Origin: Candidatus Thorarchaeota archaeon
GTDB lineage: Archaea; Asgardarchaeota; Thorarchaeia; Thorarchaeales; Thorarchaeaceae
Assembly: GCA_963726195.1 (NCBI GenBank)
Contig: CAVSBO010000015.1
Coordinates: 65,275 to 129,274, forward strand
Length of the DNA: 64,000 bases
Direction of reading: 5' to 3'
A program made the position numbers and the translations under genes. A model generated the notes under the pieces. The model had not been told where the DNA came from and did no database searches. It saw nothing but the letters and a program-made list of their open reading frames with translations. Below are positions 5,576 through 51,575 of this stretch, piece by piece. Within the stretch, counting starts at the first letter, position 1. Each line of letters begins with the position of its first letter.

Positions 5576-5586
5576 GAGACCTGCAA

Positions 5587-10856: not shown

Positions 10857-10857
10857 C

Positions 10858-27452: not shown

Positions 27453-27468
27453 GAGAGCTTGGTGTCAG

Positions 27469-27930: not shown

Positions 27931-27952
27931 AAGAAGGACGATTATTATCAGA

Positions 27953-30295: not shown

Positions 30296-30355
30296 GAATT
30301 CTCCACAAATGCGGTGCGAAGTGGTGTCCATAGGAACCGGGGGAATCTCCTTGTC

Positions 30356-33048: not shown

Positions 33049-33532
33049 GATCGCCGATAATCTCGACCCACACGGTCTTGTCAGGTCTTTCCAGGTCTAC
33101 TTTTCGCGAAATGACTTCCGCTACTCTATGAACAACGTCCATAGAAGCGAGATTGGATTGCCTTCTTCTCACCGTCACCCGAAACTTCTCATCATCCAGT
33201 ATCTTAGTTCTGAGTTCCACAACGGCACTCACAATTTCGTCGAGGGTCGAGGTCACGCATTTCTCGATTGGTGTGAATCGCAGAGCAAAACGGAACTGGT
33301 AGGGGTTTTCGACTGCGAACTCTCTGAGCTGGTGTATTGTTTGAAATGGGTCGAGATTGGTCCAACATGTGAGGATGCCGGAGCCGAGAGCGGTCGTGAT
33401 GAGAATGTCCGGATCATCAAGCAAATCCCCGATGAAATACTGGACCTCCGACTTTGCAGCACGTTCCCTCTCACGCGGACACCCAACAAGAAGATTGAAC
33501 CTTTGCAGCAGCAATCCCTCATCGGTCTGCAT
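32966..33532 (-). CDS. THUMP domain-containing protein
   Basis: The 188-aa product reads FNLLVGCPRERERAAKSEVQYFIGDLL...FRFALRFTPIE...KFRVTVRRRQSNLASMDVVHRVAEVI..., matching the ferredoxin-like plus THUMP layout. Confidence 0.6.
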   Translation of the reverse strand: MQTDEGLLLQRFNLLVGCPRERERAAKSEVQYFIGDLLDDPDILITTALGSGILTCWTNLDPFQTIHQLREFAVENPYQFRFALRFTPIEKCVTSTLDEIVSAVVELRTKILDDEKFRVTVRRRQSNLASMDVVHRVAEVISRKVDLERPDKTVWVEIIGDLSGISVLVAENDILSVRTLESDIPGAL

Positions 33533-34244
33533 AGACTATTCTCTTTGTCCAGAGACCCAGCGCCTTCGCATCGACCTTCAGGATTTCGCTCAGTCGTTCG
33601 ACTGTGAGTTCACCTTCACGATACACCTTGATGTTGCTCGGATCGCCGGGTTCAACCCCTATTATTGTGGAGTTAGCCGTAGACTTGGACGGCCCGCCGT
33701 CGACATAGAGGTCAACAGAATCCCCAAGTTGGTCTACTGCCATGCCAACCTCAAATGGACTTGGCCCACCACTGATGTTTGCACTTGTGCCAACGATTGG
33801 TCCTCCGACCTCCTTGGCAATGTTCCTCGGTACCTGATGGTTTGGAACCCTTACGGCGATGGAGTCCCTCTTCCCTGAGACCTTAGCAAGAACTGGGTGT
33901 TTCGCCGTGACAACAAGTGTGAGGGCACCGGGCCAGAACAGCTTGACGAGAACCTTCTCAAGGTCCCCGAAATCGTGATAGGTTTCACATTGGGCGAAAT
34001 CAGCGAACAGCAATGGGACTCCCATACCGGGGTCTCGTTTCTTTGCTGCTATCAGCTTGTCCATGGCTTCCTCTTGTGTCGAGTCGCACCCCAAACCATA
34101 GCTTGTATCGGTGGGATATACGACAAGCCCGCCGGACCTGATGACTGACACTGCCCTCTTGACAGCTTTCCTTAGATTCTTGGCTGATTCGATTGTGGGT
34201 TTCTTGGTCCGCATGTCGTCACTGAACCTGACCGGTACAAACAC
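33519..34244 (-). CDS. L-threonylcarbamoyladenylate synthase (TsaC/YrdC/Sua5 family, single domain)
   Basis: GGLVVYPTDTSYGLGCDS...PLLFADF...WPGALTLVV...IAVRVPNH...GGPIVGTSANISG are present. Confidence 0.8.
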   Translation of the reverse strand: MFVPVRFSDDMRTKKPTIESAKNLRKAVKRAVSVIRSGGLVVYPTDTSYGLGCDSTQEEAMDKLIAAKKRDPGMGVPLLFADFAQCETYHDFGDLEKVLVKLFWPGALTLVVTAKHPVLAKVSGKRDSIAVRVPNHQVPRNIAKEVGGPIVGTSANISGGPSPFEVGMAVDQLGDSVDLYVDGGPSKSTANSTIIGVEPGDPSNIKVYREGELTVERLSEILKVDAKALGLWTKRIVYADR

Positions 34245-34262: not shown

Positions 34263-35321
34263 TTGCTGTCTTTGAAGGAGGAACCCCTCATCCGCGCGGT
34301 GATACTGGCAGCCGGCAGAGGAGAAAGGATGCGACCGCTAAGCGACCTCGTGCCGAAGCCGCTCTTGTTCTGTGCGGGCATGACGCTGATACAGCGACTC
34401 ATTCGTTCTTTTATGGAAGCAGGTGTAAGGAAATTCACGGTTGGCGTGGGCTGGAAAGACGACCAGGTGCGAAAGCATTTGACAGCTCTTCCCGAAAGTC
34501 GGCTCATTGACGTGGTAGATGTGCCCGAGTACAAGCGCGGTCCTCTTCAAACCCTCGTGACAGCTCTGTCGAATGTCGACGACAGAACCTTCCTCGTTTG
34601 CCCGGCTGACTACATTGTTGAGGGAGAAACGATCTCCGGACTAATATCCGAGCATGACCGCGGGACTGGCCCTAGAGTTATGACTATCCTCGTTGATTCA
34701 AACAAGAATGAGGGCACACCCGTGTTTGGTGATGCAAACGGACTTGTCGCTGGCATGGGCGATTCTGCAGTAACCTTCAACAACGTAGGTTGTAGTGCCA
34801 TGTTGCTGGTTGCTGAGCAGAGCTTCAAGGCTGACTGCGGGGCGGCTCTCAAAGAGGGCAGCACGCAGGTCGTGTCAGCGATCAACAGAATCGTCTCCGA
34901 GAACAAACCAGTACGATATGCGGTGGTCAAGCAGCAATGGTTTGACATTGATGATCTATCTGCTCTGATGCGCGTCAACCATCATTTGCTGGAGCATATG
35001 ACATCAAGCGCCACAGGCACACTGTTTGTACCTTCGGGGCAGGAGGTGGATTGGCGCACCAACTTGTCGTTATCGGTGAAGCTCGACCAGGGAGCCAAGG
35101 TGACCGGTCCCGCGCTGGTGTGCGAATCCTCTCTCATAGGAGGAGAAGTCATTGTCGGCCCGTTCGTAACGATAGGACGCAACAGTCATGTTGGAGCACG
35201 GACTACAGTTGTCGAGTCAGTTCTGTTCGAGGGAGTGAACCTACCCGCCGGCGCTAGAGTCGAGAATGCTGCTGTATATCGAAAGACAGTGTACAGGAGT
35301 GAGTCCAAAGATGTCCCCTAG
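34263..35321 (+). CDS. Sugar/alcohol-phosphate nucleotidyltransferase with C-terminal left-handed beta-helix
   Basis: AVILAAGRGERMRPLSDLVPKPLL is the NTP-transferase signature. The C-terminal third has hexapeptide-like repeats (IGGEVIVGPFVTIGRNSHVGARTTVVESVL). Confidence 0.75.
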   Translation: MLSLKEEPLIRAVILAAGRGERMRPLSDLVPKPLLFCAGMTLIQRLIRSFMEAGVRKFTVGVGWKDDQVRKHLTALPESRLIDVVDVPEYKRGPLQTLVTALSNVDDRTFLVCPADYIVEGETISGLISEHDRGTGPRVMTILVDSNKNEGTPVFGDANGLVAGMGDSAVTFNNVGCSAMLLVAEQSFKADCGAALKEGSTQVVSAINRIVSENKPVRYAVVKQQWFDIDDLSALMRVNHHLLEHMTSSATGTLFVPSGQEVDWRTNLSLSVKLDQGAKVTGPALVCESSLIGGEVIVGPFVTIGRNSHVGARTTVVESVLFEGVNLPAGARVENAAVYRKTVYRSESKDVP

Positions 35322-35925
35322 TAGGTTTCGACTCAGACGTGTCTTCAGAAGGCCCATTGGATTCATGGCTCGCCCATTTGTGAAGGCTGGAGTTCGCCCA
35401 GACACAATAACCTACTTCTCACTTCTTGTCGCGGTTATCGCGTGGCTCACCCTTCTGATTTTCGACTTGCCAGTAGAGTATGGCATCCTCGTTTTCATCG
35501 TGGGCATTCTTGATGGGTTGGATGGTGCAGTCGCAAGAGGAAGTGGTCGGGCTTCAAAAGGCGGTGCATTGACGGACTCGGTAGTTGACAAGGCTGCCGA
35601 GGTTGTGCTGCTTATTGCAATTGCGACAGCGTACCCCGAGGATACGATTCTAGGTCTCTCCGTCAACATTTGGGTTGCTCTTTGCATATCTGGCTGGTTG
35701 CTCACTAGCTACTCCCGGTCAAGAGCAGAAGCATTGGGAGTCACCGACCTAGACGTTGGTCTCGGTGGCCGCTCTGAACGCCTCCTAATTCTAGCAGCCT
35801 TCTGCTTCTTCAAGTTCCTGCTTTGGGGCTTGGTAGTATCAACGTTCTTGGGCTTGTTTACTGCCGGCTACCGTTTCAATCATTACAAGGCCGAACTTAG
35901 AAACGCAGAGCGAATCACATCATGA
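35311..35925 (+). CDS. CDP-alcohol phosphatidyltransferase family protein
   Basis: DGLDGAVARGSGRASKGGALTDSVVDKAAE fits D-G-x2-A-R-x8-G-x3-D-x3-D. The protein is polytopic. ATG 35311 overlaps the upstream gene by 11 nt. Confidence 0.8.
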   Translation: MSPSRFRLRRVFRRPIGFMARPFVKAGVRPDTITYFSLLVAVIAWLTLLIFDLPVEYGILVFIVGILDGLDGAVARGSGRASKGGALTDSVVDKAAEVVLLIAIATAYPEDTILGLSVNIWVALCISGWLLTSYSRSRAEALGVTDLDVGLGGRSERLLILAAFCFFKFLLWGLVVSTFLGLFTAGYRFNHYKAELRNAERITS

Positions 35926-35993
35926 CATGTGGACAGATTCATCGGCGCCTTTGGGACCACCATACTTAAGAGCCGCCTCAGGCCGGTCGCCTC

Positions 35994-36440
35994 TTGAGAA
36001 CACCAAGCGGGGGTCTCGCGACCATGGCCACATTTAGGGCGGATTACTACTTGACGGCGGAGTTCGAGAAGGCCGATCCCACTACTGACACAAAGAACGT
36101 TCTGGAAGCTCTGCAAGACATAAAGGAAATGAAGGATCTCGCGGTGGTCTCCAGAAAACTGGAGGGCAAGCAGTGGTCTGAGATTCTAGGGCGAGTTGAA
36201 ATTCCTGCTGGTTCAAGAGAATTCTTCGCAATGGTCAAGAAGGAAACAACTCCACGTGAGCCCTACCACCTTTTCATAAGAGTCGACATTAACGAAGAGG
36301 CTCCTGACATCGCAGCAGCACGCGCTGCAGCTAAGGGCTGGATTGAGAAAGAGTTTGTGCCGAGAATCAGGACGAAGGTATCTGTCAAATCCATAAGAAT
36401 CCTTCAGCCCGAGGAGCTGTACCGACCCAAGATTAGCTAG
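35994..36440 (+). CDS. Hypothetical soluble protein
   Basis: The product is 138-148 aa, with a probable start at ATG 36024 (MATFRADYY). I recognised no family. Confidence 0.3.
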   Translation: MRTPSGGLATMATFRADYYLTAEFEKADPTTDTKNVLEALQDIKEMKDLAVVSRKLEGKQWSEILGRVEIPAGSREFFAMVKKETTPREPYHLFIRVDINEEAPDIAAARAAAKGWIEKEFVPRIRTKVSVKSIRILQPEELYRPKIS

Positions 36441-36447
36441 CAAAACA

Positions 36448-37448
36448 TCACTGTTCTATTGTGATTAGGTTCAAGATGTTGCCGACAGCCTGCGCGATTT
36501 CTGCTTTGCCATCTCCATTGAGATCACCCATTGCCAACAGAGAATCGATAGGCTTTGTCGCAGTCTTTAACGAGGCGTCCTGAACTGACTTCTGCCCGTC
36601 GTAGGAGAGTAGAAGGACAGTTGAGTCTCTGAGGCCAATCAGGATGTGGTCTAGACGCGAGTCTTTCTCTAGGCGGCCGACATGTACCGAGCTACTTCCG
36701 ACGGGAGTTGTAAGACCGTTTTCGTTTCAAGCGTTCTTTGTCCCATAACGAGCAGACTCAGAGACCGGCCGTCCGATACCATTACGACATCATCATTCTT
36801 ATCCCCCGTTATGTTGCCCGTGGCCAGAAGATGTCCCTCGCCTCCTACGGGCAGCTTGGAGAGTTCCTGTAGCCTGTCGTCCGCATAGTGGTAGATGTAT
36901 AGAGATCCGGAATCATCACCGAATACGAGCCCGCTATAGGGCATGCCTTTGTTTCTCAAGGGTCGCACAGAAAAGGTCGGCCTATCCATTACTTTGTGGG
37001 CCAACTTGTCAAGGGCTGGCCCAAACCAGCCGTAGCATCTCAGCGCTCCATCATTGGTGGCTACTATCACTTCGGCCGCCTCGTTACCAACAACATTGGT
37101 TACGCAGAGAGCAGTAGGCAAGTTGCCTAGTTGGACTGTATCCATCACAACCAGCTTTCTTTCCACAGGCGATATTACTCGCACAGCATTGTCAAGCCCA
37201 CCAACGACAAGATCGGTACTACCTTTGTCCACGACATTTCCGGTGGAAAGAACAACCACGGGCGGTAGTCCAGTTGCCTTTGAGACCTGAACTAGCCTCG
37301 GCTTCCTAGCGGTTTCGATTCGCATAATCCTAACATCGCCATCAATTGTCGAGACTACGACGTTGCTGCGCTCCCGCCCAAAAGCCGCCACTTCTAGGGA
37401 GGTTATTGCTTCCTTAAATGAAAACTCAGCAATGACTCCCAGATTCAT
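36448..37448 (-). CDS. FG-GAP/VCBS-like beta-propeller repeat protein (no signal peptide), reading frame broken near 36670-36700
   Basis: Repeated blade-like units are visible (TGNVVDKGSTDLVVGGLDNAVRV; VVGNEAAEVIVATNDGALRCY; TGNITGDKNDDVVMVSDGRSL). A final unit, LAMGDLNGDGKAEIAQAVGNILNL, lies in another frame and ends at the stop 36448-36450. Confidence 0.55.
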
Positions 37449-38181: not shown

Positions 38182-39802
38182 GTGTGTAGCTCCTTAAGTA
38201 CACCTTGCCACATAATCCCCGCGAGGTCAAGTGCCTTGCCAAAGAAGCATACAGAGGCTGAATCATCGCCTTACGGCGATGTGGACCTAGGCATCGCAGA
38301 ACTCATTCGTCTGACCGGGATGCGAGAGTCAGCGCTGGTCGCCGCCCGCAAGAAGCAGGATGAATCTTGGAAGAAAATCAATGAAACAGTCTCGGAACAC
38401 AAGCGCATCGTTGCTATTGGTGGCCGGCACACACGCCAGAAGGCAATTCAAGATCCTGTCCATGGCGCAATCATCCTTGATCCCTGGGAACTAGACTTGG
38501 TATCAAGTTGGGAGATGCTGAGGCTTCGCTACATCAAGCAGCTCGGCCCTGCCTGTATAGTCTATCCCGGAGCGACCCACACGCGATTTGAACACTGCCT
38601 TGGCACAAACTTCCTAACGCAGAAGTGCATTAGAGTCGTCAATTACTGTGAAGACCTTGCCGATGCGTGCTTCAAGCCTCTTTCCGAATTGCTGGATGAC
38701 CATCAGCAGAAAATCTTCAGAGCTGCCGCTTTGCTACATGATGTCGGTCATCCACCGACATCGCACACGATTGAATTCCCGCTAAGAAGCTGGACCGGAC
38801 TCAGTCATGTTGACCTCGGTGAGATTCTCATCATGCGTAGCGGTCTCACTGACATTCTTGAGCAAAGCGGTATCGAGCCAAAAGCTGTCGTCGATGTTCT
38901 CATGCGTCGGTCGACGGACCCGGTGCTTAGCCTTCTTTCAGATTTCCTAGACTCGCCACTCGACCTCGACAAGACCGACTACCTGATTCGTGATGCGCAT
39001 TTCAGCGGTGTTCAGCTGGGCATCTTTCCTGCCGAACGGGTCATGCTCACCAACCGCGTAGTCCGTGACTCGGAAGGCAGGTACGTGCGGGCATTCATGT
39101 TGAAGGCGCTGCATTCACTTGAGGCACTGATTCTGAGTCGAAATTGGATGTTCTCAGATCTCTACCTGCACCATGCCGTGCGAGTCGCAGAAGCGCTTAC
39201 CTCCAAAGCCACATACTTCAGGATGAAGGAGGAGCAACTCTCCAAGAACGAGTGCATTGGAATGTTCACGAGAATGACTGATTCCGACCTTTACCAATGG
39301 CTCGGCGAGTCTGAGACCAACTTTGTTCGCGAATACGTAGCCAGAATCAGGTATCGGCGATTGTTCAAGGTGGCTGTGTCGAGAACCGATTGCCGCCCTT
39401 GAACCGGATGCCCGGAAGCGCGTACTGGACATGGCTTCTGACATTGATCGCCTGCTCCAAGCTGAGACCACGCTCGATGAGAATCCCGGAAAAGTAATCA
39501 TTGACGTGCTCAACCCTGAACTGGGGTTCCGGTTCCTATCGACCATTCCTCTCCTAATTGGGAAAGAGGACTCGAGCCTAGAGATAGTCAGTCTAAGAGA
39601 CACCTACGAAGGGAGACCTCTCGTGCAGGCACTGAGTCAGCAGAGATTTACCATTCCGTCAGTACGAGTCTATTGTGACCCTGAAATCGCTCCTGGCGTC
39701 CGACGGCGTTTCGATAGAGAGTTCCCGACCGCGCCACGGGCAAAAGACACAGAAGATGATTCTCAACGAACTCGCAAGCCCTACCATCATCACGAATCAT
39801 GA
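38182..39802 (+). CDS. HD-domain phosphohydrolase (SAMHD1/dGTPase-like), reading frame broken near 39370-39390
   Basis: IQDPVHGAIILDPWELDLVSSWEMLRLRYIKQLG...THTRFEHCLGT...LLHDVGHPPTSH...DKTDYLIRDAHFSGV are present. The C-terminal 123-aa ORF (39431-39802) reads back as REPIAALEPDARKRVLDMASD, joining the first ORF. Confidence 0.7.
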
Positions 39803-40507
39803 GTCATGCGTCGAGTTGTCATGCTCCTCAAGATGAAAGATGAGTCGCTTCACCTCATCCAAGCCCTGTTCAATGTACACGATTCCATAGACGGCCTCCA
39901 GAAGTGTGCCCTTTGTGTGGCTTATCTCGGACTTTGTGGGAGTTGGAGGATCGAAATGAATGCGATACTCGTAGAGCCCCCATTGATCACACAACCATGA
40001 TAGGTGTTCGTTGCTAACGAGCTCGGCTCGAGATTGGGTCAGCAGCCCTGCATCGGCAAGCCTCGGACGCCACAGATGATGAAGGACTGCCATTGAGATT
40101 GCCGCGTCTCCTACCAAGGCCAGAACTCTGGCCATATCACTCAACGATTTCAGGTTCACGAAAAGGCCCGAACTGAGAGGTCCGTCTTGGTTCGCGAAAT
40201 GCGTTTCAAGTTCAAGAAAGAGGCTCCTCGTGCTGGGCTGAAACATAGCTATTGAGAGAAGTTCAGTCTCTTCAAAGCGCAGTCCTAGAATGGATGAGAT
40301 CTTTGGCTCCAAGATGGTGTGAATCTGCGAGACCGCAGCAATGACGGTCTCAAGCTGCTGTCTCCAACGCTCAAGCTTGCCAAATAGCCGTGCGTTCAGG
40401 CGAGAAGTGTTGGCTTCGCCGGACTTCACGACTGCAAGTAGCGACTTCAGCTTGTCTTCAACGCCTACATGGTCCCAGTGCAGCTCCGTCCCGGTCACGG
40501 CTCTCAT
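39797..40507 (-). CDS. RNase III-domain protein without dsRBD, partly degenerate catalytic signature
   Basis: ILGLRFEETELLSIAMFQPS resembles the RNase III N-terminal LGYxFxxxxLLxxALTHxS. RVLALVGDAAISMAVLHHLW occupies the ERLEFLGD position. GTLLEAVYGIVYIEQG occupies the DxFEAxxGAIYLD position. Confidence 0.45.
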   Translation of the reverse strand: MRAVTGTELHWDHVGVEDKLKSLLAVVKSGEANTSRLNARLFGKLERWRQQLETVIAAVSQIHTILEPKISSILGLRFEETELLSIAMFQPSTRSLFLELETHFANQDGPLSSGLFVNLKSLSDMARVLALVGDAAISMAVLHHLWRPRLADAGLLTQSRAELVSNEHLSWLCDQWGLYEYRIHFDPPTPTKSEISHTKGTLLEAVYGIVYIEQGLDEVKRLIFHLEEHDNSTHDS

Positions 40508-41301
40508 ATCATGCCCTCTCCAGGGACTATGTGGGTTACCGCGGTTCTCTCTCCCTCATGACGCTGTATGTAGATGGCAGTAAGCGAGTACTGCATGGCG
40601 ATAAGGCACAATGCAAGCAGGATTACAGAAGGGCCCGTGGAAAGGTTCACTATGGGCTCAGACTCCGGCAATGCCTCGAGGACGACCTTCTCAATATGTG
40701 CGTAGGTCGCCATCAGATCTCCTCTTATTCGGGTTTCTTCGTAGCCCGCCACTTTTGTTGGCATCTCGTGCCAAATAGTTTGCCACTTCTTTGTGACTCC
40801 CTCAGGGACGTATCTATCGATGTTCTTGCTGACGCCTCTCGCGAACCGCTCCTGTTCGACAACGAGTCGGAGGAACTTGAAATTGAAGGTCATTTCCTTG
40901 GCAAACCACATCATTAGCGGTCGCGCCTCTTCAGGCTGACTAATAGACGTGATTAGAGTGCCCGGCCTCGAAATCCCGAGGGCCCTTCTGACAGACTGAA
41001 TTGCTCTAGGGTGCAGTTCGTATATTCTCTGTTGGGAATCTTTTCTGCTTACGATTATTCCAAGGTCCTCGAGATGCTTTGTGTTGAAGTAGAGCTTGGG
41101 ATCGGTCACCCTGAAATCATCGGGCTTTACGTTCTTCATGCCAGCTTGAACTGCCTCGGTCATCATGTTCTTCCTGATACTCTCTCGGAGCTCCGCTCCT
41201 GTCTTTGAGCCGCCTTCGAGCTGGTCCAGTATTATACGACGAACAGCAACGCTCTCCACTTCCGTCTTGACGAGCGTGTCGATGTGGTTTTGGAACATCA
41301 T
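40504..41301 (-). CDS. Winged-helix (ArsR-like) protein with C-terminal Rossmann-like, possibly CARF-like, domain
   Basis: The N-terminal wHTH reads RRIILDQLEGGSKTGAELRESI...HLEDLGIIVSRKDSQQRIYELHP. The C-terminal half has alternating strand/helix segments (PGTLITSISQPEEARPLMMWF...PIVNLSTGPSVILLALCLIA). A 4-nt ATGA overlap links it to the RNase III-like gene. Confidence 0.4.
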   Translation of the reverse strand: MMFQNHIDTLVKTEVESVAVRRIILDQLEGGSKTGAELRESIRKNMMTEAVQAGMKNVKPDDFRVTDPKLYFNTKHLEDLGIIVSRKDSQQRIYELHPRAIQSVRRALGISRPGTLITSISQPEEARPLMMWFAKEMTFNFKFLRLVVEQERFARGVSKNIDRYVPEGVTKKWQTIWHEMPTKVAGYEETRIRGDLMATYAHIEKVVLEALPESEPIVNLSTGPSVILLALCLIAMQYSLTAIYIQRHEGERTAVTHIVPGEGMI

Positions 41302-41623
41302 ATCTGTTCACGACTTAGATAACAGTTGATTGCTTAGCAGAACGGTTGCATATATGAATCATGTATAGTCCACCCTACGGCGAGGCGGCGCCATCTACGG
41401 CGCCTAGGGCATGTGATTTCGCAACCCCAAGAATCCAACAAGGCATATATGACCTATATGGGTCATGTTGTTCTATGCCCATTTCGCTGCTTTTGGGAGA
41501 TTCGTCCACGTTCGACTTATATTCCCCGGTCGGACTCTTCCTATCAATTAGGGTTCTAGTAGGATGCTTCATGCATTCTGAATCTTAACACTTGAAAACA
41601 GAAAACAAGAGGACCGACATAAA

Positions 41624-42763
41624 ATGGCTGAAGACGAATTCCTGGGCGCAAAGCCAGTTGTCATTGACAATGGCACTGGCCTTAGCAAGAACGGGTACGC
41701 AGGTGAGGACCAACCACGAAGTGTCTGGCCGACGCTGATTGGCTATCCACGATACGAGTCAATCATGACCGATGTAGATCACTACACTCGTGACTACTAC
41801 ATCGGTGAGGAGGCCATCAACCTACGAGGTGTCTTGCGTCTTGTGTATCCCATTACTCATGGAGTAATTGATGACTGGGACGCTATTGAGAAGATTTGGT
41901 CTTACACATTCTACAACGACCTCAAAGTTGACCCGAGCGAGAATCCTGTGCTTCTTACTGAAGCTCCATTCAATCCGCGAGAGAACAGAGAGCGAATGGC
42001 ATCAGTGATGTTCGAGAACTTTGGAGTCCCAGCCGTCTATGTAGCGACGCAAGCAGTGCTGTCACTGTACGCGTCCGGAAGAACAACGGGTCTAGTCATT
42101 GACTCGGGTGACGGTGTAACTCACATAGTCCCGATTTACGAGGGCTTCGCGATTACACACGCTATCCGAAGAATCGACTTGGCTGGACGTGACGTCACAG
42201 AGTATCTGCGTAGGCTGCTCAGACAGAGGGGTTACTCCTTCGTGAGCGGTGCTGAGAAAGAGATCGTTAGGGACATCAAGGAGAAGCTCTGCTATGTCGC
42301 CCTCGATCCTGAGAGGGAAAGAACAGTGGCTGACAAGGCAGGTGTCGACAAGCCCTACATGCTGCCAGACGGCGAGGTAATTACCGTTGGCGCTGAGAGG
42401 TTCCAGGCACCGGAGCTGTACTTCAACCCGAGCGCGATAGGCCTTGACACTTCACCTCTCGACGACCACATTGTCGAGTCAATCAAGGCATGTGATGTGG
42501 ACCTGAGACGTGACCTATACGCGAACATTGTCCTATCTGGTGGTTCAACCATGTTCCCAGGACTGAAGGAGAGACTCCACAAGGAGATCACCGAACTAGT
42601 CCCGGAGAACATTGAGGTCAGAATCATCGCTCCTCCTGAGAGACAGTACTCAGTCTGGATTGGTGGAAGCATCCTTGCTTCACTGAAGACCTTCCAGAAG
42701 ATGTGGGTCTCGAAGAAGGAGTTCGAGGAGTCAGGCCCCGAAGTCATTCACCGCTGTATCTAA
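41624..42763 (+). CDS. Actin, eukaryote-like (Asgard 'lokiactin'-type)
   Basis: The 379-aa product is collinear with eukaryotic actin: [132 protein letters not shown]. Confidence 0.95.
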
Positions 42764-42889
42764 ACGCGACAGTTTCCGAAGGAGTGGCTGCGATGCCCTC
42801 CTTCAGACTCATTTTTCTCATGCCCTGAATCCTGACTGGATGACATCCAACCACAAGCGACCTGCTGGTTCTTTCTGCAGGCAATTCCG

Positions 42890-44467
42890 GTGCTTTTACA
42901 GTATTTCTTATTAGAAGCACTTGGCGGATGTCAGAGTCCTGACTCTTGCGAAGCCCCTACGACGAATCTTCCCTTCTCGACGCTTCAGCGAGTCCGCGCA
43001 AAGGACAGGGACACTCAAGCAATGAACGAGATTTCAAGAAACCATCGCTTGGCTTTGACACTCTCTCCTCTCTGGAGGATTCTTGCGTCACGCTTGGCGG
43101 TCAAGTGTGAGAAATGCGGACAAGAGAGATTGCTGTCGGTTTTCCAGTTCTACTCGAAAGGTCAGCCTCCTCGCTGCCGGAGCTGCTTACTCGCCTCCGC
43201 GACTATGATGCCATTTATAGACCTGCTATTTCGGCGACTCGGAGTCCCCAAAAACACCACGAAGTCGTTGCTTGGGGATGCGATAACTCGCAAGTCCATG
43301 CTGAGTGTCGTGAAAGGCATTGCCAGCTTCGGAGTAAGATATCCACAGCCCGCCGGTGTGCCGATTGCCATTGTGTGGAACGTCACCAATAGATGCAACC
43401 TTCGCTGCATCCACTGCCATCAGGACTCATCGCCAACGTGTTCCGATTCGGAACTGACAACTGCGGAAGCATTCAAGGTCATAGACAACGTGAGCGATGC
43501 AGGGCTTGTAACACTGACGTTCTCAGGTGGAGAACCCCTAGTTCGGAAGGATTTGTATGACTTGATTGGGAGGGCTAATGACAGCGGCCTATTATGCACG
43601 ATAGCATCGAACGGCACTCTTCTGACCGCAGAGAAAGCCAGAGAACTTGCGAAGGCCGGAATCAAGCGAGTCGAAATAGGCCTAGATGGCTCGAGGCCTG
43701 AAACGCATGATTTTCTTAGAAACAAACAAGGGAGCTTCGAGGCCACCGTTGAGGCTATCCGTTGTTGCGCTGCTCAGGGCTTTGATGAGATAGCAGCGAC
43801 CATGACTCTGTACTCGAAGAATGCTGACGAATTACATGACACCATGGAGCTTGCTGAAAAGCTCGGTGCGACGAGATTCTATTTGAACAGACTCATCCCT
43901 GCAGGTCGGGGAGTGAGCGCATCCTATCTTGACGTAACTCCCAAACAGAAAGCTGACGCGCTGGAGACGTTGTATTCTAAGTTCCACAGGAGTGCAACCT
44001 GTGGTTCGGGCATACAATGCTACGCTAGAGGAATGACATACTACGCACGTCTAGGTTACGAGTGTTCGCGCGGCAGACTCTTCACGGTGAGTGAGTCTTT
44101 ATCGGGTCACGAAAGAATGTTCGAAGACAAGTTTGGCTCACAAGTCTCCAAGATTGTAAACAGGCTTGCAGAAGGCTTCGGCGGATGCTCCGCTGGATTG
44201 ACATATGCTGGGCTCACCGCCTCGGGCGATTTGACACCGTGCGTTCCGGCGTCAGAACCACTGGGTAACCTGCTCAATCAGAGCCTTGAGGACATATGGC
44301 TTCACAATCGAACTCTAAACCGCATAAGAGACCGCAAGGCATTGGGAGGTTCGTGTGGTACATGTAGTGACAATCGTATCTGTGGCGGCTGCAGATACAC
44401 TGCATACGTAGCAACGGGTGACTGGCTGGGATCTGATGTGTCTTGCCCGTGGGGACCAGCATGGTAA
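42890..44467 (+). CDS. Radical SAM / SPASM-domain protein with N-terminal zinc-ribbon extension
   Basis: VTNRCNLRCIHC is the CxxxCxxC motif. The C-terminal Cys cluster (GGCSAG...CVP...CGTCSDNRICGGCR) is SPASM-like. The N-terminus has CEKCG...CRSC. The start is more likely ATG 43022 (MNEISRNH). Confidence 0.75.
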   Translation: MLLQYFLLEALGGCQSPDSCEAPTTNLPFSTLQRVRAKDRDTQAMNEISRNHRLALTLSPLWRILASRLAVKCEKCGQERLLSVFQFYSKGQPPRCRSCLLASATMMPFIDLLFRRLGVPKNTTKSLLGDAITRKSMLSVVKGIASFGVRYPQPAGVPIAIVWNVTNRCNLRCIHCHQDSSPTCSDSELTTAEAFKVIDNVSDAGLVTLTFSGGEPLVRKDLYDLIGRANDSGLLCTIASNGTLLTAEKARELAKAGIKRVEIGLDGSRPETHDFLRNKQGSFEATVEAIRCCAAQGFDEIAATMTLYSKNADELHDTMELAEKLGATRFYLNRLIPAGRGVSASYLDVTPKQKADALETLYSKFHRSATCGSGIQCYARGMTYYARLGYECSRGRLFTVSESLSGHERMFEDKFGSQVSKIVNRLAEGFGGCSAGLTYAGLTASGDLTPCVPASEPLGNLLNQSLEDIWLHNRTLNRIRDRKALGGSCGTCSDNRICGGCRYTAYVATGDWLGSDVSCPWGPAW

Positions 44468-44525
44468 ACGTTGTTTTCGGATGCGACAACTTAGCGTAGG
44501 TACGCGTGCCGCTAATCGAATGTCC

Positions 44526-45473
44526 CTAGGACATCCGTTCAAGTCGTGCAGTGCTCTTACTCTGTCTTCTCTTGACACAGACAACTGCAACTGTCACAGA
44601 GGCTGCCGCCGCCAAGGCGAACGCCAAGACAGGTATGTCCGGAACTGGGTTGATCCGGGGTCCGACTGTCTGAATGGTATAACCAACTGGCAGTTCGTTG
44701 ACGACGTGAACTGTTACGCTGTCTGAGCTACTTGTCCATCCTGCAGAAACAGACAAAGCAAACACATGGTCTCCGAGCGAGAGGCCATCCACACTGATTG
44801 TCAACGACCCAGTCCATGACCAAGACTCGATGAGATAACCGTCTTCATAGAGCATATAATGGTTCGGACCTCCACGCCCGATTTCCCATGTAACAGTGTG
44901 GCCAGTGGTTCCTGTTAGGTACCACAGATCGGGTGTATCATAAAGCTCTATTGGCACGCCATCTTCGACGTAACCACCGAAGAGTATCTGGTAAGTACAG
45001 GTATCCGTGACTGCCCAGTCGTTTAGCAAATCCTTTGCAGCATATTTGACTTGGTATGTATATCCCTGAAAACCTGTGATGGGCGTCTCACTCAAATTGG
45101 CTGGAAAGAGAAGGAAGCATCTAAACCAGCTGGCGTTCGAAGTATCTTCAGTCATCGATAGGTTCTGCCAAGGGCCTTCCGCGTATGAATACATCATGAG
45201 TACCGTGTCGACTCCGTTCGGGTCCTGTACAAGCACCTGCAAAGAGAGATTGAATTCAAATTCCCAATAAACTTGGTAGTAGTACTTCCTAAGGTAGTAT
45301 CGCATGGAAGGGCCAGTGATATCTATTGACTTCGTCTGATTTTCGTTGTACATGATACTGGGTTTGGGCACGGCTACCGGAGAGGCTTGATTACCCAAGC
45401 AGAGAAGGTCTACACCCACGATCAGTATCAGCAAAGATACTACTAAACCCTGCCTCCAATCGATAATTTTCAA
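44526..45473 (-). CDS. Hypothetical surface protein (N-terminal signal/TM, C-terminal TM anchor, several N-x-S/T sequons)
   Basis: The N-terminus is MKIIDWRQGLVVSLLILIVGVDLLCLG. The C-terminal anchor is PVLAFALAAAASVTVAVVCVKRRQ. The body is beta-rich. I recognised no family. Confidence 0.45.
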   Translation of the reverse strand: MKIIDWRQGLVVSLLILIVGVDLLCLGNQASPVAVPKPSIMYNENQTKSIDITGPSMRYYLRKYYYQVYWEFEFNLSLQVLVQDPNGVDTVLMMYSYAEGPWQNLSMTEDTSNASWFRCFLLFPANLSETPITGFQGYTYQVKYAAKDLLNDWAVTDTCTYQILFGGYVEDGVPIELYDTPDLWYLTGTTGHTVTWEIGRGGPNHYMLYEDGYLIESWSWTGSLTISVDGLSLGDHVFALSVSAGWTSSSDSVTVHVVNELPVGYTIQTVGPRINPVPDIPVLAFALAAAASVTVAVVCVKRRQSKSTARLERMS

Positions 45474-45940
45474 TGCCTCGAGATGCCATATCAGCCGCCT
45501 GAGATAAACGCTTTCATGCCCCGAACTCTTTGGTCAGAGAAGTAACTCTTTTCTTGTGAACTGTAACTGTCAGACTTGCGTTAATGGTTTGCCTGAAGTG
45601 CCGTACAGACGCCATGACCAGACCTCTCTCTGACTACTCACATAGCAGTTGAAAGTGCGATCCGTGTGCGGCACGCAGACGACTCAACGAATCAATCAGC
45701 GTTTCCTCTTTGTCTCCAACAAGAAAGACCGATTGTATTTACAACCGTCTGTCTCTTGTTTGCACCCAGCCTCGAACAAACGACATAGGTTTGCGGCCTC
45801 CCCTCGGTACGACTCGCGAACGATGATATTCTGTAGGCGCAGTTCATGCAGCTCTTTGGCAAAACCACATTCTAGGCCTCCTCGATTAGTCAATAACACG
45901 ACATCGCTGCTATGTCTTTCTCCCGATTAAAGGGTCCTGC

Positions 45941-46711
45941 CTAGGTAGGGGACAACAGAAAAGGCAGTATCGAATATCCGCTGAACAAGACTGGAGCAAA
46001 GTCGAGTAAGAAATGAATACTGGCAATTGGCCACATGCTCTTGGTCTGTCTGTAGAGAAACACATAGCCGATGGGTATCATGAATTGAATCGGGAAGAAG
46101 ATTTCCGTCCAGAAGAAAGCGTATGTGCTTCCGAGCAAGAACTTGCCCCAGAAGAAGGCATGAACGAGACCAATCAAAGAAAGATACAACAGCGTCCCGA
46201 TGGCAATCATTGCTGTTCTCTTTCTGCCAGCATCGTAATAGTCTGCATATGAGTCGAATGTGTAAAGCCAGATTAGTTGTTCAGACATCGCATTCGCAGG
46301 CGCCCACAATAAGAGCGTGGCGAGCCATCCAAGTGTGTTCACTGAAGAGACTCGAATCACAGTCGCATATGATGCCATAACAAGCACAAGCTGTAGCGCG
46401 AGAACGACAAAGAAGAGAGGTGTTGCGGATCGTTTCACCTTGCGCCATATCGGTTCTCGCTCTATGCCGTAATCAAGGCGTCCCCTTCTCCATTTCACGA
46501 TCACCCAAGAAAAGATGACATAGTAAATGAACATCGGAACCAACGCCCCAATCAGACTGTAGGTGTAGCCAAGAAGCAGCGGCAGACCAAGTGCTGCGAA
46601 CAACGCAATGGCCAGATCTGCTCTCTTCGGTTGAAACGACGGTTGCCTCCCTTCTATACCGCTCAAAGTCTCACCACTGGCTGCGTCAGGTTGCTGCCTT
46701 ATAGATGTCAC
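45941..46711 (-). CDS. Polytopic membrane protein, possibly degenerate CPBP (CAAX protease)-like
   Basis: There are about 7 hydrophobic segments. SEQLIWLY, LVHAFFWG and SIHFLLDF sit roughly where the CPBP motifs EExxxR, FxxxH and HxxxD occur, but the first is not conserved. Confidence 0.35.
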   Translation of the reverse strand: MTSIRQQPDAASGETLSGIEGRQPSFQPKRADLAIALFAALGLPLLLGYTYSLIGALVPMFIYYVIFSWVIVKWRRGRLDYGIEREPIWRKVKRSATPLFFVVLALQLVLVMASYATVIRVSSVNTLGWLATLLLWAPANAMSEQLIWLYTFDSYADYYDAGRKRTAMIAIGTLLYLSLIGLVHAFFWGKFLLGSTYAFFWTEIFFPIQFMIPIGYVFLYRQTKSMWPIASIHFLLDFAPVLFSGYSILPFLLSPT

Positions 46712-47169
46712 CGTGCGGACTCGTCAGTGCACTTATATCGTGGCACCTCGCGCGAATTGCGCCAGGTGTAATCATTATGGACAGAAGCGGGTACCATCGA
46801 CTGTTGTTTGTAATTGCAGCAATCTGGAACTGGGTCTTAGCTGTGCTTTTCTTGGTGCTTCCGAGAATCAATATTGACTACTTCCTGTTGGGCGGCAGCC
46901 CAATTCCTCCAACATTACTTTGGTTCGATTGCTTCATGGGCGAAGTCTTAGCTTTCGGAATTGGTTTCTATCTCGTCAGCCTAAATCCGAAACAGAATCA
47001 CGGCCTTATTGAGATAGCCATCTTCGAGAAACTGTGGGTATTTGTCATGGGTCTCGGCTATTTTCTCATCGCACAAGCATCAGCTTTGCTACTTTCGATA
47101 GTCACTGGCGACCTTCTCTTCGGTCTACTCTTTGTTGAGGATCTCATACGAATTCGCAAGCTGCCCTGA
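46705..47169 (+). CDS. Hypothetical membrane protein
   Basis: There are four hydrophobic segments. The probable start is internal (MDRSGYHRLLFVIAAIWNW). Confidence 0.35.
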   Translation: MSPCGLVSALISWHLARIAPGVIIMDRSGYHRLLFVIAAIWNWVLAVLFLVLPRINIDYFLLGGSPIPPTLLWFDCFMGEVLAFGIGFYLVSLNPKQNHGLIEIAIFEKLWVFVMGLGYFLIAQASALLLSIVTGDLLFGLLFVEDLIRIRKLP

Positions 47170-47294
47170 TTAGTGACAAATCATTAGCCTATCACATTCG
47201 GAAAGGTTAATCATGTACGGCGGTCCCGGAACATGGTCCAAGCTCAGTTTGTGACGGGTCTCGGGCAAGACGGGACTAACTAGAGGCTTAGAAG

Positions 47295-48380
47295 ATGGCC
47301 ACGAATGCATACGAGCGGCTTGCCGCAGTGCTTGACAAGATACCAAACGGCTTCGTTCATACCGAGTCGGGTGCACATCTCAGATTGCTCAAGTGGATAT
47401 TCGCACCGGATGAGGCCGACTTGGCGAGTCGGATGAAGCTGAAGGGTGAGACGGCAAAGGAGATGGCCGTCCGTCTCAAACTGAATGAGAAGGATCTAAA
47501 GAGTCGCCTTGAGAAGATGGCCGAGAAGGGCTTGATACGTGCATGGACGTCTAGCACTGGTAGACGATATGCTCTGATGCCTTTCGCTGTGGGCGTGTAT
47601 GAAGAGCAGCTTGAACGAATGGACAAGACGTTGGCTCGGCTGGTAGAAGATTACTTTATGGATGCGAGAGGGTCTGGATTGTATGAAGCGGAACCCCCCA
47701 TCTTCAAAGTCATTCCTGTCAATAAGGCAGTGCACTCAGAGCTTGAGATTTACCCATACGAGGTTGCTGAAGAGCTGATCGAGACCTCTAAGGCTTGGGG
47801 CGTCAGGGAATGCATCTGCAAGAAACAACAGGGATTGCTTGGGAAGCCATGCAAGTACCCTTCCACTGTGTGCATCGTGCTATCCCCAAAGAAGGAGAAT
47901 GTGTTCGAAGAAGACCATCTAACGAAGGCCGTCACGAAGGAAGAGGCGCTAGTGATTCTGCACAAGGCGGAAGAGGCAGGACTTGTCCACTGCTCACAGA
48001 ACATGCAGAAGGGGCATTTCTACATCTGTAACTGCTGCACATGCTGTTGCGCCATTCTGAGAGCCGTTGCACACTGGGAGATGCCGTACGCACTGGTCAA
48101 GTCAGACTACGTGGCCACTGTTGATTCGGACATGTGCGCTGGCTGTGGTACCTGCGAGGATCGGTGTCAGTTCGGCGCGCTGAAAGTTGTTGATGATATT
48201 AGTCGTGTGGACGCCACACGTTGCATCGGGTGTGGCGTGTGCTCGATTACCTGCCCCCAAGGTGCTCTAACCCTTACGATGAGAGACCCTGCCAAACGCA
48301 AGGTCCCGCCTGAAACACTCATGGACTGGATGGTCGAGAAGGCCAAATCAAGAGGAGTCAACCCAGCTGATTTGCTATGA
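47295..48380 (+). CDS. 4Fe-4S cluster-binding protein (ferredoxin-type dicluster domain plus extra Cys motifs)
   Basis: CAGCGTCEDRC and CIGCGVCSITCP are classic CxxCxxCxxxCP motifs. CICKKQQ...CKYPSTVC and CNCCTCCC are upstream. Confidence 0.7.
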   Translation: MATNAYERLAAVLDKIPNGFVHTESGAHLRLLKWIFAPDEADLASRMKLKGETAKEMAVRLKLNEKDLKSRLEKMAEKGLIRAWTSSTGRRYALMPFAVGVYEEQLERMDKTLARLVEDYFMDARGSGLYEAEPPIFKVIPVNKAVHSELEIYPYEVAEELIETSKAWGVRECICKKQQGLLGKPCKYPSTVCIVLSPKKENVFEEDHLTKAVTKEEALVILHKAEEAGLVHCSQNMQKGHFYICNCCTCCCAILRAVAHWEMPYALVKSDYVATVDSDMCAGCGTCEDRCQFGALKVVDDISRVDATRCIGCGVCSITCPQGALTLTMRDPAKRKVPPETLMDWMVEKAKSRGVNPADLL

Positions 48381-48484
48381 GCCGGTCACACCTCCTCTCA
48401 TCACATTTCTCCATATGGTTTATGAGCCGTAACGACAAGTGCGCGTAATAGAAGACACCTGCAAAGGAGTTTCAAGAGTGGGCC

Positions 48485-49476: not shown

Positions 49477-50927
49477 GTGGCAACAAGCATGGACGAGTAC
49501 GAGCGATTGTTGCACGAAGGCACAGAGCAAGACCGGCTTATTGATTCAGTGGGCAATCGGGATGTGTTTGACAGGGAATCTGGGGCGGAACTGGCCAGTT
49601 GGGAGCTCCGGCTTCACAGGGAGTTTCGCGAGAGAATAGGCAGTAGGACATACAGATTCAGGGGGTTCGTCCATCATACTCGTGAACTCTCTCTCATCAT
49701 GCTCACACCGAGTCCTTGGCTACTAGGCGGCGTGTTCGTGCATCTCCACGAAGGGCAGGAGATGCCGCCCGAAGGAGCATTCGTTGAGGTTACCGGCCCC
49801 ACAATCGCGGCACCCACTCTTCTTCAGCGTTCCCAGACCCTTGTCAGGGCGATTGCGGCCGAGAGCCTGAGCGTCCTGTCTCCCGAGACGCCCCCCGGAG
49901 TCTCTCCTCCTCTCACTCTAAAGGACCTCTCCGAGATGCTGTTTGAGCATGTCGGAATAGCGGAGGCCAGCAAGGGAGCGTTTGCTCGACTGTTCGTCTC
50001 AAGTCCTCCGTACAAAGAAGCTGTGGGTGGTCTCACTATGGGGATTCTAGCTCTTGCTGCAGAATCTGAAGTGAAGAGGCTGCTCAATTTCGTCCGAAGG
50101 GTGCTTCCCCCAACGTTCAGGACTAGGTACAAGTCATATCGGTCCATAGACGGCATAGATGTCACATTGCCCAAGCTATGGCGGTTAGAAACTGGCCAGA
50201 CATCTGAGCCAAGAATGGAATCGATATGCGTGAAGCGAGTTGATCCTCTTGGCTACAGAGAATGTCCCTTGGAGCTCTGACGGATTCAAAGACTGCTGTT
50301 TTCCCTGATGTTCCTCTTGCAATTGCCTCAGGAGACTTCTGGGTGGAGGAGAAGGACGCTTCCCAATTGATGCTCCCGGTCCTCAAGGCCGCTATTACTT
50401 ATCAGCTCCTTACTCCAATTGTCAGTGAACGGTCCATCGACTCAGCAACAAAGCATATCGTTTCCCGTCTGGAGTCGCTGAGGGATAGCTACGACCTTGG
50501 TGATTCGGCTCTGGCCAGAGGAGGGCTTCTTGATGCTGACTCCATGGGCAGGCCACTCAGCACCCTCAGGCTCGCACAGTCTACTGCACGTGCAGAATGG
50601 AATGATACGGTCAATAGTGGCGAACTGAAGCACTCTTGGGATCAGATACTGGAACCGGCCCTCAGAGAGTTCATTGAGACCAGCGAGCTGAAAAGTGAGA
50701 GAGAACAAGAAGGGGGTCCCGGAACCAAACTGGGCAAGTTCGACACCAAGATTCTTAGAGTCTTGAAGGCGTTGGACGATGGTGTCCGTGGCTCTCTGGG
50801 ACCGACTCTTGAGCTGATTGCCGGAGAAGCGAGTCTGGAGCGACATATCGCTGCCGAAAGCCTGACGAAATTGAAAGATGCGGGGGTCATCTACGAGCCC
50901 CGTGCCGGCCACTACAGACTAGTGTGA
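49477..50927 (+). CDS. Hypothetical protein, possibly MCM-derived and ATPase-inactive, with C-terminal winged helix; two ORFs probably joined by a frameshift near 50262-50280
   Basis: The C-terminus LTKLKDAGVIYEPRAGHYRLV resembles the MCM winged helix. SMGRPLSTLRLAQSTARAEW resembles the MCM lid R-x-L-E-x-x-x-R-L-x-E-A-x-A. ILALAAESEVKRLLNFV sits where Walker A would be but lacks GxxGxGKS. These are by-eye resemblances only. Confidence 0.3.
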
Positions 50928-50957: not shown

Positions 50958-51575
50958 TCAACGCAGCAGTTTCTTGATGCTGTCTGGTTCCTCGCCCTCG
51001 TCGACGAGTATGATTCTCTGGGCTCCTACTCGTTCTGCATCGTACTTGCGTGCGATGATTGTTGCGTCGAACTTCTCACGTGCACTTGCCTTTTTGCCAC
51101 GCCAGATGTAGATGTTGTCCCAAGTGTCCAAGAGGAACACGTACTCGCTCTTGAGCGAATCACGCGCCCATGGCACTTCTGTAAAGAAAGTCTGTCCCTT
51201 GACATTAGATACTCGCCACATCTTGTATTCATGTTTCTGAAGCTGGACCTTTCTCAGAATACCGGCTGTGTCTTCGTCTGTAAGCTGGAAGCTCTTGAAA
51301 AGTGCTTTGAACGCTGGAGGCTCATCTCCACCGTCAATACGGACCAGCTGGGCTTGGCCCTTGCGTGCTGTGTCCCTGAAGACCGCCTCGGCAGCGGCTA
51401 GGAACTGCTCATCCGCTGTCGACTTGGGACCAATCCACATGTACACCGTGAGGCCCCCATCGACAAGGTAGCAGTCTCCCTGTCCGAATTTGCCGGGGTC
51501 CGGCACCTTGACAAGCTTGCCCTGCTGGATGTGATACACAGTGACTTCGGGCATGATGGTTAAAGATGCAAACAT
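50958..51575 (-). CDS. Two-domain gelsolin/cofilin-fold actin-binding protein (Asgard 2DGel-like)
   Basis: Domain 1 reads VYHIQQGKLVKVPDPGKFGQGDCYLVDGGLTVYMWIGPKSTADEQFLAAAEAVF...LVRIDGGDEPPAFKALFKS. Domain 2 reads MWRVSNVKGQTFFTEVPWARDSLKSEYVFLLDTWDNIYIWRGKKASAREKFDATIIA...RIILVDEGEEPDSIKKLL. Both follow the gelsolin-repeat pattern (VWRVE...GDAYVIL...HYWLG...ES..F...F). Confidence 0.85.
   Translation of the reverse strand: MFASLTIMPEVTVYHIQQGKLVKVPDPGKFGQGDCYLVDGGLTVYMWIGPKSTADEQFLAAAEAVFRDTARKGQAQLVRIDGGDEPPAFKALFKSFQLTDEDTAGILRKVQLQKHEYKMWRVSNVKGQTFFTEVPWARDSLKSEYVFLLDTWDNIYIWRGKKASAREKFDATIIARKYDAERVGAQRIILVDEGEEPDSIKKLLR

Follow-up and report, generated by a model that had tools for sequence, protein, structure and literature searches.

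A lokiactin-type actin gene of a Thorarchaeote and the divergent winged-helix CARF gene paired with it

Does a gene that reads like a eukaryotic actin, lying among archaeal housekeeping genes, belong to the archaeon in whose assembly it is found, and what could be setting its expression? This question is raised by positions 41,624 to 42,763 of a 64,000-nucleotide stretch of contig CAVSBO010000015.1 (assembly GCA_963726195.1, Candidatus Thorarchaeota archaeon); the whole stretch is called the window here. An earlier note, made from the letters alone, had described the product as a eukaryote-type actin in an archaeal neighbourhood. The present analysis indicates that the open reading frame (ORF) very probably encodes the filament-forming housekeeping actin of a Thorarchaeote, an orthologue of lokiactin. 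It was also found that this actin and a neighbouring gene for a protein with a winged helix-turn-helix (wHTH) and a CARF domain are a stable gene pair in many Asgard lineages. The neighbour may be the one element of the locus that is new.

Judged by family scores, the ORF is a true actin and not a crenactin, MreB or ParM. The Pfam Actin model (PF00022) matches it with 447.2 bits against a cut-off of 27, over residues 10-377 and profile positions 5-407 of 410. Pfam MreB_Mbl gives 32 bits, which is formally above its cut-off of 27, yet 415 bits under Actin. The NCBIfam models for crenactin, MamK, BeeR and MreB reach 19-48 bits where their cut-offs are 293-630 (crenactin 45 against 630, MreB 18.7 against 293), and MreBH reaches 21 against 515. 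Crenactin, MreB and ParM have the actin/HSP70/sugar-kinase ATPase fold in common with the window protein; the NCBIfam cut-offs of crenactin and MreB lie far above its scores. The view of the earlier note that the protein is nearer to eukaryotic actin than members of these families would be was borne out. Among all PDB sequences the top match is HC1 actin (9wc4, 630 bits), followed by yeast, amoeba and animal actins at about 530-541 bits. Alignment to human beta-actin by BLASTP gave 221 of 367 positions identical (60%), 297 similar (81%) and 3 gap positions, in agreement with the claim that the 379-residue product is collinear with eukaryotic actin over its full length. The only insertions relative to actin are 2 D-loop residues. 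Unlike a eukaryotic actin gene, the gene is a single uninterrupted ORF in an archaeal context, and it is intron-less as had been said. A second actin-like gene was not found within the 64-kb window.

The long blocks that the earlier note had quoted as identical to actin are present in the protein, with small transcription slips, and one of them is not identical. The 14-residue block matches actin LLTEAPLNPKANRE at only 11 of 14 positions. The 17-residue block had been given in the eukaryotic REIVRD... spelling, and the actual window sequence is identical to actin at 16 of 17 positions. The 32-residue block is present, one residue being missing from its dashed version, and the 19-residue block differs from actin at K336Q alone.

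A collection of 5.8 billion proteins was searched for the nearest relatives. The closest clusters are from Candidatus Thorarchaeota, with 93-95% identity. Identity to other actins is 78-80% for Freya and Jord lineages, 76% for Hod, 73-75% for Atabey, Njord, Hel and Prometh and 59-60% for eukaryotes, and divergent representatives of the actin family show 44-55%. In a neighbour-joining tree on Kimura distances (100 bootstraps, unlabelled outgroups) the window protein groups with Thorarchaeota actins at a bootstrap of 100, and 26 named Asgard conserved actins form one clade at 99, with the eukaryotic actins on the opposite side. The phylogenetic check which the earlier note had suggested places the protein inside the conserved Asgard clade. 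Distances from the window actin are about 0.58-0.63 to every eukaryotic actin as against 0.05-0.33 to Asgard actins. Since the tree rests on distances and its outgroups carry no labels, no topology is claimed beyond the Thorarchaeota and Asgard nodes. Asgard and eukaryotic actins fall into one cluster at 50% identity, so the exhaustive search of such clusters yields no separate Asgard cluster, and its matches served only as unlabelled outgroups.

The family is not new, as had been stated. The exact 379-residue sequence is already public on a 129.8-kb contig, annotated 'actin beta/gamma 1', and for this reason the finding on actin is to be regarded as already known. The public 90%-identity cluster that contains it has 323 members, the named ones being 'actin, cytoplasmic 2 [Candidatus Thorarchaeota archaeon]'. 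A scan of species representatives gave 394 actin-encoding stretches, the best of which, in the metagenome-assembled genome (MAG) OWC5, encodes a protein 100% identical to that of the window. The two ORFs differ in the start codon (TTG in OWC5, ATG in the window) and otherwise at third codon positions. The possibility that the window is the OWC5 contig was rejected, and OWC5 is taken to be a different organism, since the DNA is 94% identical in the actin gene and 79% in the flanks.

Comparison with characterized actins places the protein closest to those of other Asgard archaea. Lokiactin (for example of 'Ca. Lokiarchaeum ossiferum', PMC9834061) belongs to the same orthogroup and to one well-supported clade with it, with about 73-75% identity to Loki/Hel-type members, and shares the D-loop and the nucleotide-site residues. 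Near-matches to both peptides used for lokiactin-specific antibodies (PMC9834061) are found as two 15-residue stretches. The difference is that the window actin comes from the class-level sister lineage Thorarchaeia and carries Thorarchaeota-specific substitutions, for example a C-terminal ...HRCI in place of ...HRCF. HC1 actin of Hodarchaeales strain HC1, the best match of solved structure, aligns over residues 7-377, the only gap being one residue long, and also has the D-loop region longer by 2 residues and the DNGTG P-loop; it is from another Asgard class, and the deposited chain has a longer N-terminus (402 amino acids).

Residues of the nucleotide and catalytic site are kept (D11, G13, G15, K18, H73, Q137, D154-G158, H161, R210, K213, E214, G301-G302). 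The P1 loop reads DNGTGLK, and H73, Q137 and DSGDGV..H are the same as in actin; Q137, H161 and the phosphate-binding loops are likewise identical to those of eukaryotic actin (human ACTB, yeast Act1, PDB 1yag). Changes near this site are conservative (S14T, M16L, T303S, Y306F). The hydrophobic cleft that gelsolin, profilin and WH2 use in eukaryotic actin is identical at 12 of 13 positions, and the acidic N-terminal tail is missing. For structure prediction with AlphaFold2, an alignment limited to 54 Asgard sequences (73-95% identity) gave a pLDDT of 43 and was discarded. The model that was kept, from a second alignment to which eukaryotic sequences had been added, has a pLDDT of 74 and a pTM of 0.75 and is predicted to have the four-subdomain actin fold. 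The top 50 Foldseek matches in the PDB are all eukaryotic actins (TM 0.85-0.93; 0.87-0.89 to 1yag). The structural check proposed in the earlier note points to an actin fold with nucleotide site and cleft retained. The gene is under extreme purifying selection, with a dN/dS of about 0.03. In the relatives used for this comparison the neighbouring genes have reached saturation at synonymous sites, and their dN is 4-12 times that of actin.

What the protein could be doing is read by analogy with its relatives. L. ossiferum is scaffolded by lokiactin filaments that are twisted, double-stranded and like F-actin (PMC9834061), actin filaments of strain HC1 reach into the protrusions (bioRxiv 10.1101/2025.02.26.640444), and inhibitors of actin polymerisation stop protrusion growth and motility (bioRxiv 10.1101/2025.11.30.690169). 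Filaments of this kind and high expression are known for the L. ossiferum and HC1 orthologues only. The window actin would likewise most likely bind ATP in the cleft that separates its two lobes, hydrolyse it and polymerise head-to-tail into a twisted, double-stranded filament like F-actin, and such filaments would most likely scaffold cell bodies and membrane protrusions. Asgard gelsolins and profilins probably govern how these filaments grow and come apart. That this particular protein polymerises, builds such filaments, serves this role in the cell and is regulated by gelsolin is predicted from its orthologues. One orthologue of a calcium-dependent two-domain gelsolin (2DGel) is encoded about 8 kb away. 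Pfam Gelsolin matches it with 89.7 bits in two repeats, and it aligns to PDB 7c2g chain G (Thorarchaeota '2DGel3') with 290 bits over residues 7-198; its exact sequence was not found in the public protein collection. With rabbit actin, Thor 2DGel3 shows Ca-dependent severing, nucleating and bundling activity (PMC7444086). The gelsolin orthologue lies 2.6-3.6 kb from actin in five related contigs (L001-L005, described below). No profilin was found among the window ORFs scanned, which did not cover every small ORF.

Several points weigh against the view that this is a filament-forming housekeeping actin. The D-loop is identical to that of eukaryotic actin at only 4 of 15 positions, besides its 2 extra residues, and the hydrophobic plug at 4 of 13; K336 is replaced by Q, Y306 by F, and the C-terminus is without K373. 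These differences could alter filament contacts, nucleotide affinity or profilin binding. Subdomain 2 (residues 18-74) has low confidence in the predicted model. To our knowledge no Thorarchaeote has been cultured, and the literature search found no instance of a Thorarchaeota actin filament imaged or reconstituted. The Thorarchaeota gelsolins were assayed on rabbit actin (PMC7444086). Promoter, leader and terminator of the gene are predicted from conservation only, and frameshifted genes elsewhere in the window mean that sequence quality or gene integrity is imperfect, the actin ORF itself being intact.

The similarity to eukaryotic actin also invites the explanation that a eukaryotic fragment was joined to archaeal DNA by contamination or chimeric assembly. 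In its favour are the 60% identity to animal actin and the tetranucleotide composition, which correlates least with that of the whole window in the 4-kb steps beginning at 42001 (0.83) and 44001 (0.80), the mean being 0.88 (sd 0.03). These minima lie in a variable segment just 3' of actin. On the other hand, the closest proteins are those of Thorarchaeota (93-100%), and both flanks are shared with them. Window DNA is collinear from about 31.7 to 55.7 kb with L001-L005, five independent contigs encoding actins 93-95% identical to that of the window. They have the same upstream order of beta-propeller (-), hypothetical (+), HD (+), RNase III (-), wHTH-CARF (-) and actin (+), and this block is common to more than 60 independent Thorarchaeota assemblies. 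Downstream of actin the relatives carry a methyltransferase, a 478-residue hypothetical protein, gelsolin (-), Fpg, M20 peptidase, a luciferase-like protein, Ham1 and TrmB, and by Pfam or BLASTP the same series appears in the window from 48.5 kb (the Ham1 position, ORF 54953..55378, was not scanned). The variable segment is missing from L001-L005 and partly common to OWC5, OWC3 and L012, in which a radical SAM/SPASM gene likewise follows actin directly (77% amino-acid identity in OWC5). DNA similarity between the window and OWC5 ends at 42822. Terminal repeats or signs of mobile elements were looked for around 42.8-48.4 kb and none of note was seen, nor do repeats flank the segment; it is lineage-specific gene content and not a mis-join. 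GC content in 2-kb steps is 0.48-0.54 across the window, tetranucleotide composition is continuous across actin, and the GC content at third codon positions (0.59) and the correlation of relative synonymous codon usage (0.62) of actin are inside the range of the other window genes. Synteny with many independent Thorarchaeota assemblies on both sides of actin and the continuous composition and codon usage exclude chimerism for practical purposes, and the contig is Asgard as the earlier note had held. The same high similarity could suggest that this Thorarchaeote recently acquired its actin from a eukaryote by horizontal transfer, which is a negligible alternative as well: the neighbourhood is conserved throughout Thorarchaeota and in part in other Asgard classes, Asgard actins make up a single clade, the window actin is much farther from eukaryotic actins than from Asgard ones, and the codon usage of the gene is native.

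It could also be argued that the gene encodes an Arp-like (actin-related protein) paralogue with a role other than filament formation, since several actin-family paralogues occur in Asgard genomes (PMC9834061) and D-loop and plug are unlike those of eukaryotic actin. This is very unlikely. In the tree with unlabelled outgroups the protein falls among the conserved actins of every Asgard class sampled (73-80% identity), whereas divergent representatives are much more distant, and the diverged D-loop and plug are themselves near-invariant among Asgard conserved actins; both lokiactin antibody epitopes are nearly conserved. That the gene is a decaying or non-functional copy might be suspected from the seven genes in the 64 kb that are split into two adjacent ORFs (Table 1), with frameshifts verified for two. 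At these two breaks it was tested whether the frameshift falls at a homopolymer, as in long-read errors, and it does not; the HD gene is intact in OWC5. The splits are either assembly error or pseudogenisation. The actin ORF, in contrast, is complete and aligns collinearly with its orthologues, is under the strong constraint described above, has all catalytic residues intact and was recovered independently, with the same protein sequence, on a JGI contig, so that decay is extremely unlikely. A functional, single-copy housekeeping actin, orthologous to lokiactin and native to the Thorarchaeote, remains the explanation that we prefer.

The gene directly upstream of actin gives the locus another dimension. 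Its product in the window has no Pfam match at E<=1e-3. The PADLOC model CARF_m5 (PDLC01987) matches it with E=2.3e-19 over residues 63-247 and profile positions 29-189 of 195, and matches 11 of 11 members of the family of this neighbour, the best with 4.4e-60. Other CARF, Csx1, Csa3 and Csm6 models give many weaker matches to the family; independent weak CARF matches were obtained in Pfam, NCBIfam and the PDB, where the best result of a profile search is the CARF nuclease 8z4i. The N-terminal domain matches PadR and HTH_20 in 5 of the 11 members. A profile search of a large database returned 96 clusters without Pfam assignment, annotated as hypothetical, wHTH, ArsR or PadR; those with a taxon name are labelled Asgard, except one 'Deferrimicrobium'. 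In many of the clusters, and in this exception too, the longest contig is as long as that of an actin match.

BLASTP found homologues directly upstream of actin in Atabeyarchaeia, Helarchaeota and Thorarchaeota. For counting, a hidden Markov model was built from five seeds, and only loci with enough upstream sequence were considered informative. In Thorarchaeota the wHTH-CARF gene adjoins actin at all 64 informative loci, always divergently, with a median gap of 268 bp as measured between stop-to-stop ORF boundaries. In other or unlabelled lineages it does so in 13 of 19 informative loci, two of which are from the same Atabey genome. These are Atabey, LC30, Freya, three Jord-type, three unclassified, one Thor-like locus labelled 'Hermod' and Hel, where the two genes are co-oriented. 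The gene was not beside actin in the three Jord-like, two Borrarchaeum and one Hodarchaeota loci examined. The loci with the pair are the window, L001-L005, L008-L018, L020-L060, L062-L073, L075, L077-L080, L082, L085, L086, L090 and L091. Looked up from the side of the neighbour, a Hel/Prometh-type member lies 1.7 kb upstream of actin with one gene inserted, and one that bears the label 'Lokiarchaeota' and has Thor-like surroundings adjoins actin divergently; a third contig stops short of the actin position.

Classically, a local transcription factor is encoded by a divergent gene, such as one for a wHTH sensor protein, that has its promoter region in common with the neighbouring gene. The Thorarchaeota pair has such a common promoter region of about 270-320 bp, and a regulatory role is proposed for the wHTH-CARF protein on the ground of this layout. 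It could be a transcription factor that responds to a small molecule, possibly a nucleotide, and sets the expression of actin; we put this forward tentatively, with less than even confidence. The motif [DN]-x-[ST]-x-x-x-[RK], reportedly defined by Makarova et al., is presumably the signature of the CARF ligand site. D/N-x-[ST]-x-G-x-[RK] is kept in the Atabey, LC30, Freya and Hel members and in L079, and not in L071. The window copy reads N-L-S-T-G-P-S at this place, and Thorarchaeota members in general have lost the basic residue, which makes ligand binding by the Thorarchaeota copies uncertain. Csa3, the transcription factor of CRISPR loci, is similar in combining a CARF sensor with a wHTH domain, and PADLOC Csa3 models match 5 of the 11 family members weakly. 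The actin neighbour differs from it in the reversed order of the domains (wHTH N-terminal, CARF C-terminal), in belonging to the separate family CARF_m5, in adjoining actin in retrieved loci that showed no CRISPR-Cas genes, and in that the Thorarchaeota copies are without the basic residue of D-x-[ST]-x-x-x-[RK], which is kept in most members of other lineages.

The actin alone confirms the established view that Asgard archaea, including Thorarchaeota, carry eukaryote-type actin under very strong constraint. It is a clean, well-contextualised example and conceptually nothing new. Most eukaryotic-signature genes of Asgard archaea lie outside conserved neighbourhoods, and the conserved neighbourhoods that have been named are those of ESCRT and LAMTOR/Rab/DENN, not actin (bioRxiv 10.1101/2020.10.19.343400). 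Work on the regulation of lokiactin has centred on gelsolins and profilins (bioRxiv 10.1101/2025.11.30.690169). No mention of the pairing of actin with the CARF gene was found in the searchable literature; an earlier description in work on CARF classification is possible. A paper on Haloferax volactin proved to have no bearing on such a link with a regulator. Should the wHTH-CARF protein indeed regulate actin, the cytoskeleton of archaea related to eukaryotes would receive a signalling input. The conserved partner would be a concrete, testable handle on the control of actin expression in Asgard archaea and would show whether a CARF sensor was recruited outside antiviral defence.

Signals for the expression of actin were sought in 55 non-redundant Thorarchaeota upstream regions with shuffled controls. 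A motif CTTAAAT/CTTAAATA stands at a median of -103 in 50-53 of the 55 regions, where the commonest k-mer in shuffles reaches no more than 9-17. This box would be the TATA promoter element of actin. At about -15, GAGGACCG/AGGACCGA is found in 50-51 of the 55 loci and is near-invariant in the alignment; the element GAGGACCGA of the window probably combines a ribosome-binding site of the Shine-Dalgarno type with conserved bases flanking it. From the positions of TATA box and ribosome-binding region we infer a leader of about 75 nt. Transcription would then probably start about 75 nt upstream of the ATG from the conserved TATA box, and translation probably uses the GAGG-containing ribosome-binding site. 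A T5 run after the stop codon, read by eye, is possibly an archaeal oligo-T terminator. The region between the two genes was searched for a palindromic operator common to the loci, and AT-rich palindromes dominated the k-mer and inverted-repeat scan; RNAalifold found no consensus structure in the leader alignment. Inverted repeats overall are enriched over shuffles (z about 6). Of 21 loci with arms of at least 6 nt and a recognisable TATA box, 13 have an inverted repeat of the GAG..CTC type that begins 32-36 nt past the box (L013, L014, L016-L018, L020, L021, L023, L026, L027, L036, L042 and L070), at about -77 to -46 from the actin ATG and near the predicted transcription start. Its arms are variable yet complementary (AGAGTTC/GAACTCT, CAGAGTC/GACTCTG, GGAGCTT/AAGCTCC and others). 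It could serve as an operator or form a hairpin in the 5' RNA; the window, OWC5 and OWC3 are without it.

Table 1. Coordinates of the actin gene, its neighbours and other features in the 64-kb window
Feature	Position	Strand	Remarks
MFS (major facilitator superfamily) transporter, split gene	310..1695		two adjacent ORFs
Aldehyde:ferredoxin oxidoreductase, split gene	5551..7363		two adjacent ORFs
ABC (ATP-binding cassette) ATPase, split gene	10825..11660		two adjacent ORFs
Proteasome-alpha, SBDS, Rrp4, Rrp41, Rrp42	13.2-17.3 kb		exosome superoperon
L37Ae	17474..17779		
Brix-domain match	17817..18389		weak, sub-threshold
Pcc1	18379..18648		KEOPS component
Urocanase, split gene	25424..27452		two adjacent ORFs
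Imidazolonepropionase, split gene	30356..31646		two adjacent ORFs
Cgi121	32356..33048		KEOPS component
Sua5/YrdC-like gene	33519..34244	-	expected, by synteny with L001 only
HD-domain protein, split gene	38182..39802		homologues align across two frames, break about 39385
wHTH-CARF gene	40504..41301	-	265 amino acids; N-terminal winged helix, C-terminal CARF (CARF_m5)
Intergenic region	41302..41623		322 bp, between the divergent wHTH-CARF and actin genes
TATA-like box (putative)	41515..41523	+	CTTATATT in the window, Thorarchaeota consensus CTTAAATA; about 103 nt before ATG
Conserved element GAGGACCGA	41609..41617	+	starts 15 nt and ends 7 nt before actin ATG
Actin coding sequence	41624..42763	+	intact ATG-to-stop ORF, 379 amino acids plus stop; Thorarchaeota orthologue of conserved Asgard actin (lokiactin)
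T5 run	42812..42816	+	49 nt after actin stop; read by eye
Lineage-specific segment	42823..48484		directly 3' of actin; five genes
Radical SAM/SPASM	42890..44467		first gene of the segment
Other genes of the segment	within 42823..48484		315-residue hypothetical (-), 256-residue membrane protein (-), 154-residue hypothetical, 361-residue 4Fe-4S ferredoxin-domain protein
478-residue hypothetical, split gene	49477..50927		homologues align across two frames, break about 50255
Two-domain gelsolin (2DGel type)	50958..51575	-	8.2 kb downstream of actin, same syntenic block
tRNA with presumed intron	60373..60489	+	insertion of about 45 nt; Rfam 38.8 bits
TiaS	62258..63577	-	ribosomal protein S13 also near the 3' end

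The archaeal neighbours that the earlier note had named, namely the exosome superoperon, L37Ae, TiaS and an intron-containing tRNA, were all recovered by family or Rfam matches. The 117-nt tRNA match spans the whole 71-position model, and an insertion must therefore be present; ARAGORN did not detect a tRNA at this place. The position right after actin seems to be a hotspot of gene-content change. In place of the segment found in the window, TYW2 stands just 3' of actin in L001-L004 and nothing in L005.

Further observations concern the wider surroundings. A histidine-utilisation cluster at 25424..31646 comprises urocanase, an aromatic amino-acid (histidine) ammonia-lyase and imidazolonepropionase, two of the three being frameshifted. 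A three-gene block upstream of actin (window 34263..36440, L008 2122..4376) is common to Thorarchaeota and Atabeyarchaeia and consists of an NTP-transferase, a CDP-alcohol phosphatidyltransferase and a small hypothetical protein (28% identity, E 9e-22). The phosphatidyltransferase is assigned to window ORF 35266..35925 by position and synteny only, the Pfam match being on the orthologues in L001 and L008. A gene of the inositol monophosphatase family adjoins actin in L091. A link of the upstream block to inositol-lipid metabolism and the regulation of profilin would be pure speculation. The beta-propeller/FG-GAP protein at 36669..37448 (-), which is kept in the actin-upstream block of Thorarchaeota, has weak Pfam matches to the propeller models of BBS7 and BBS2 (BBSome); it is 333 amino acids long in relatives against a 259-residue ORF in the window. 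Roadblock/LC7-domain genes occur up to 3-5 kb upstream of actin in Jord- and Hel-type loci (L007 902..1321, L009 2114..3205, L090 549..1604), and in Hel-type loci a histone-fold gene lies directly downstream of actin.

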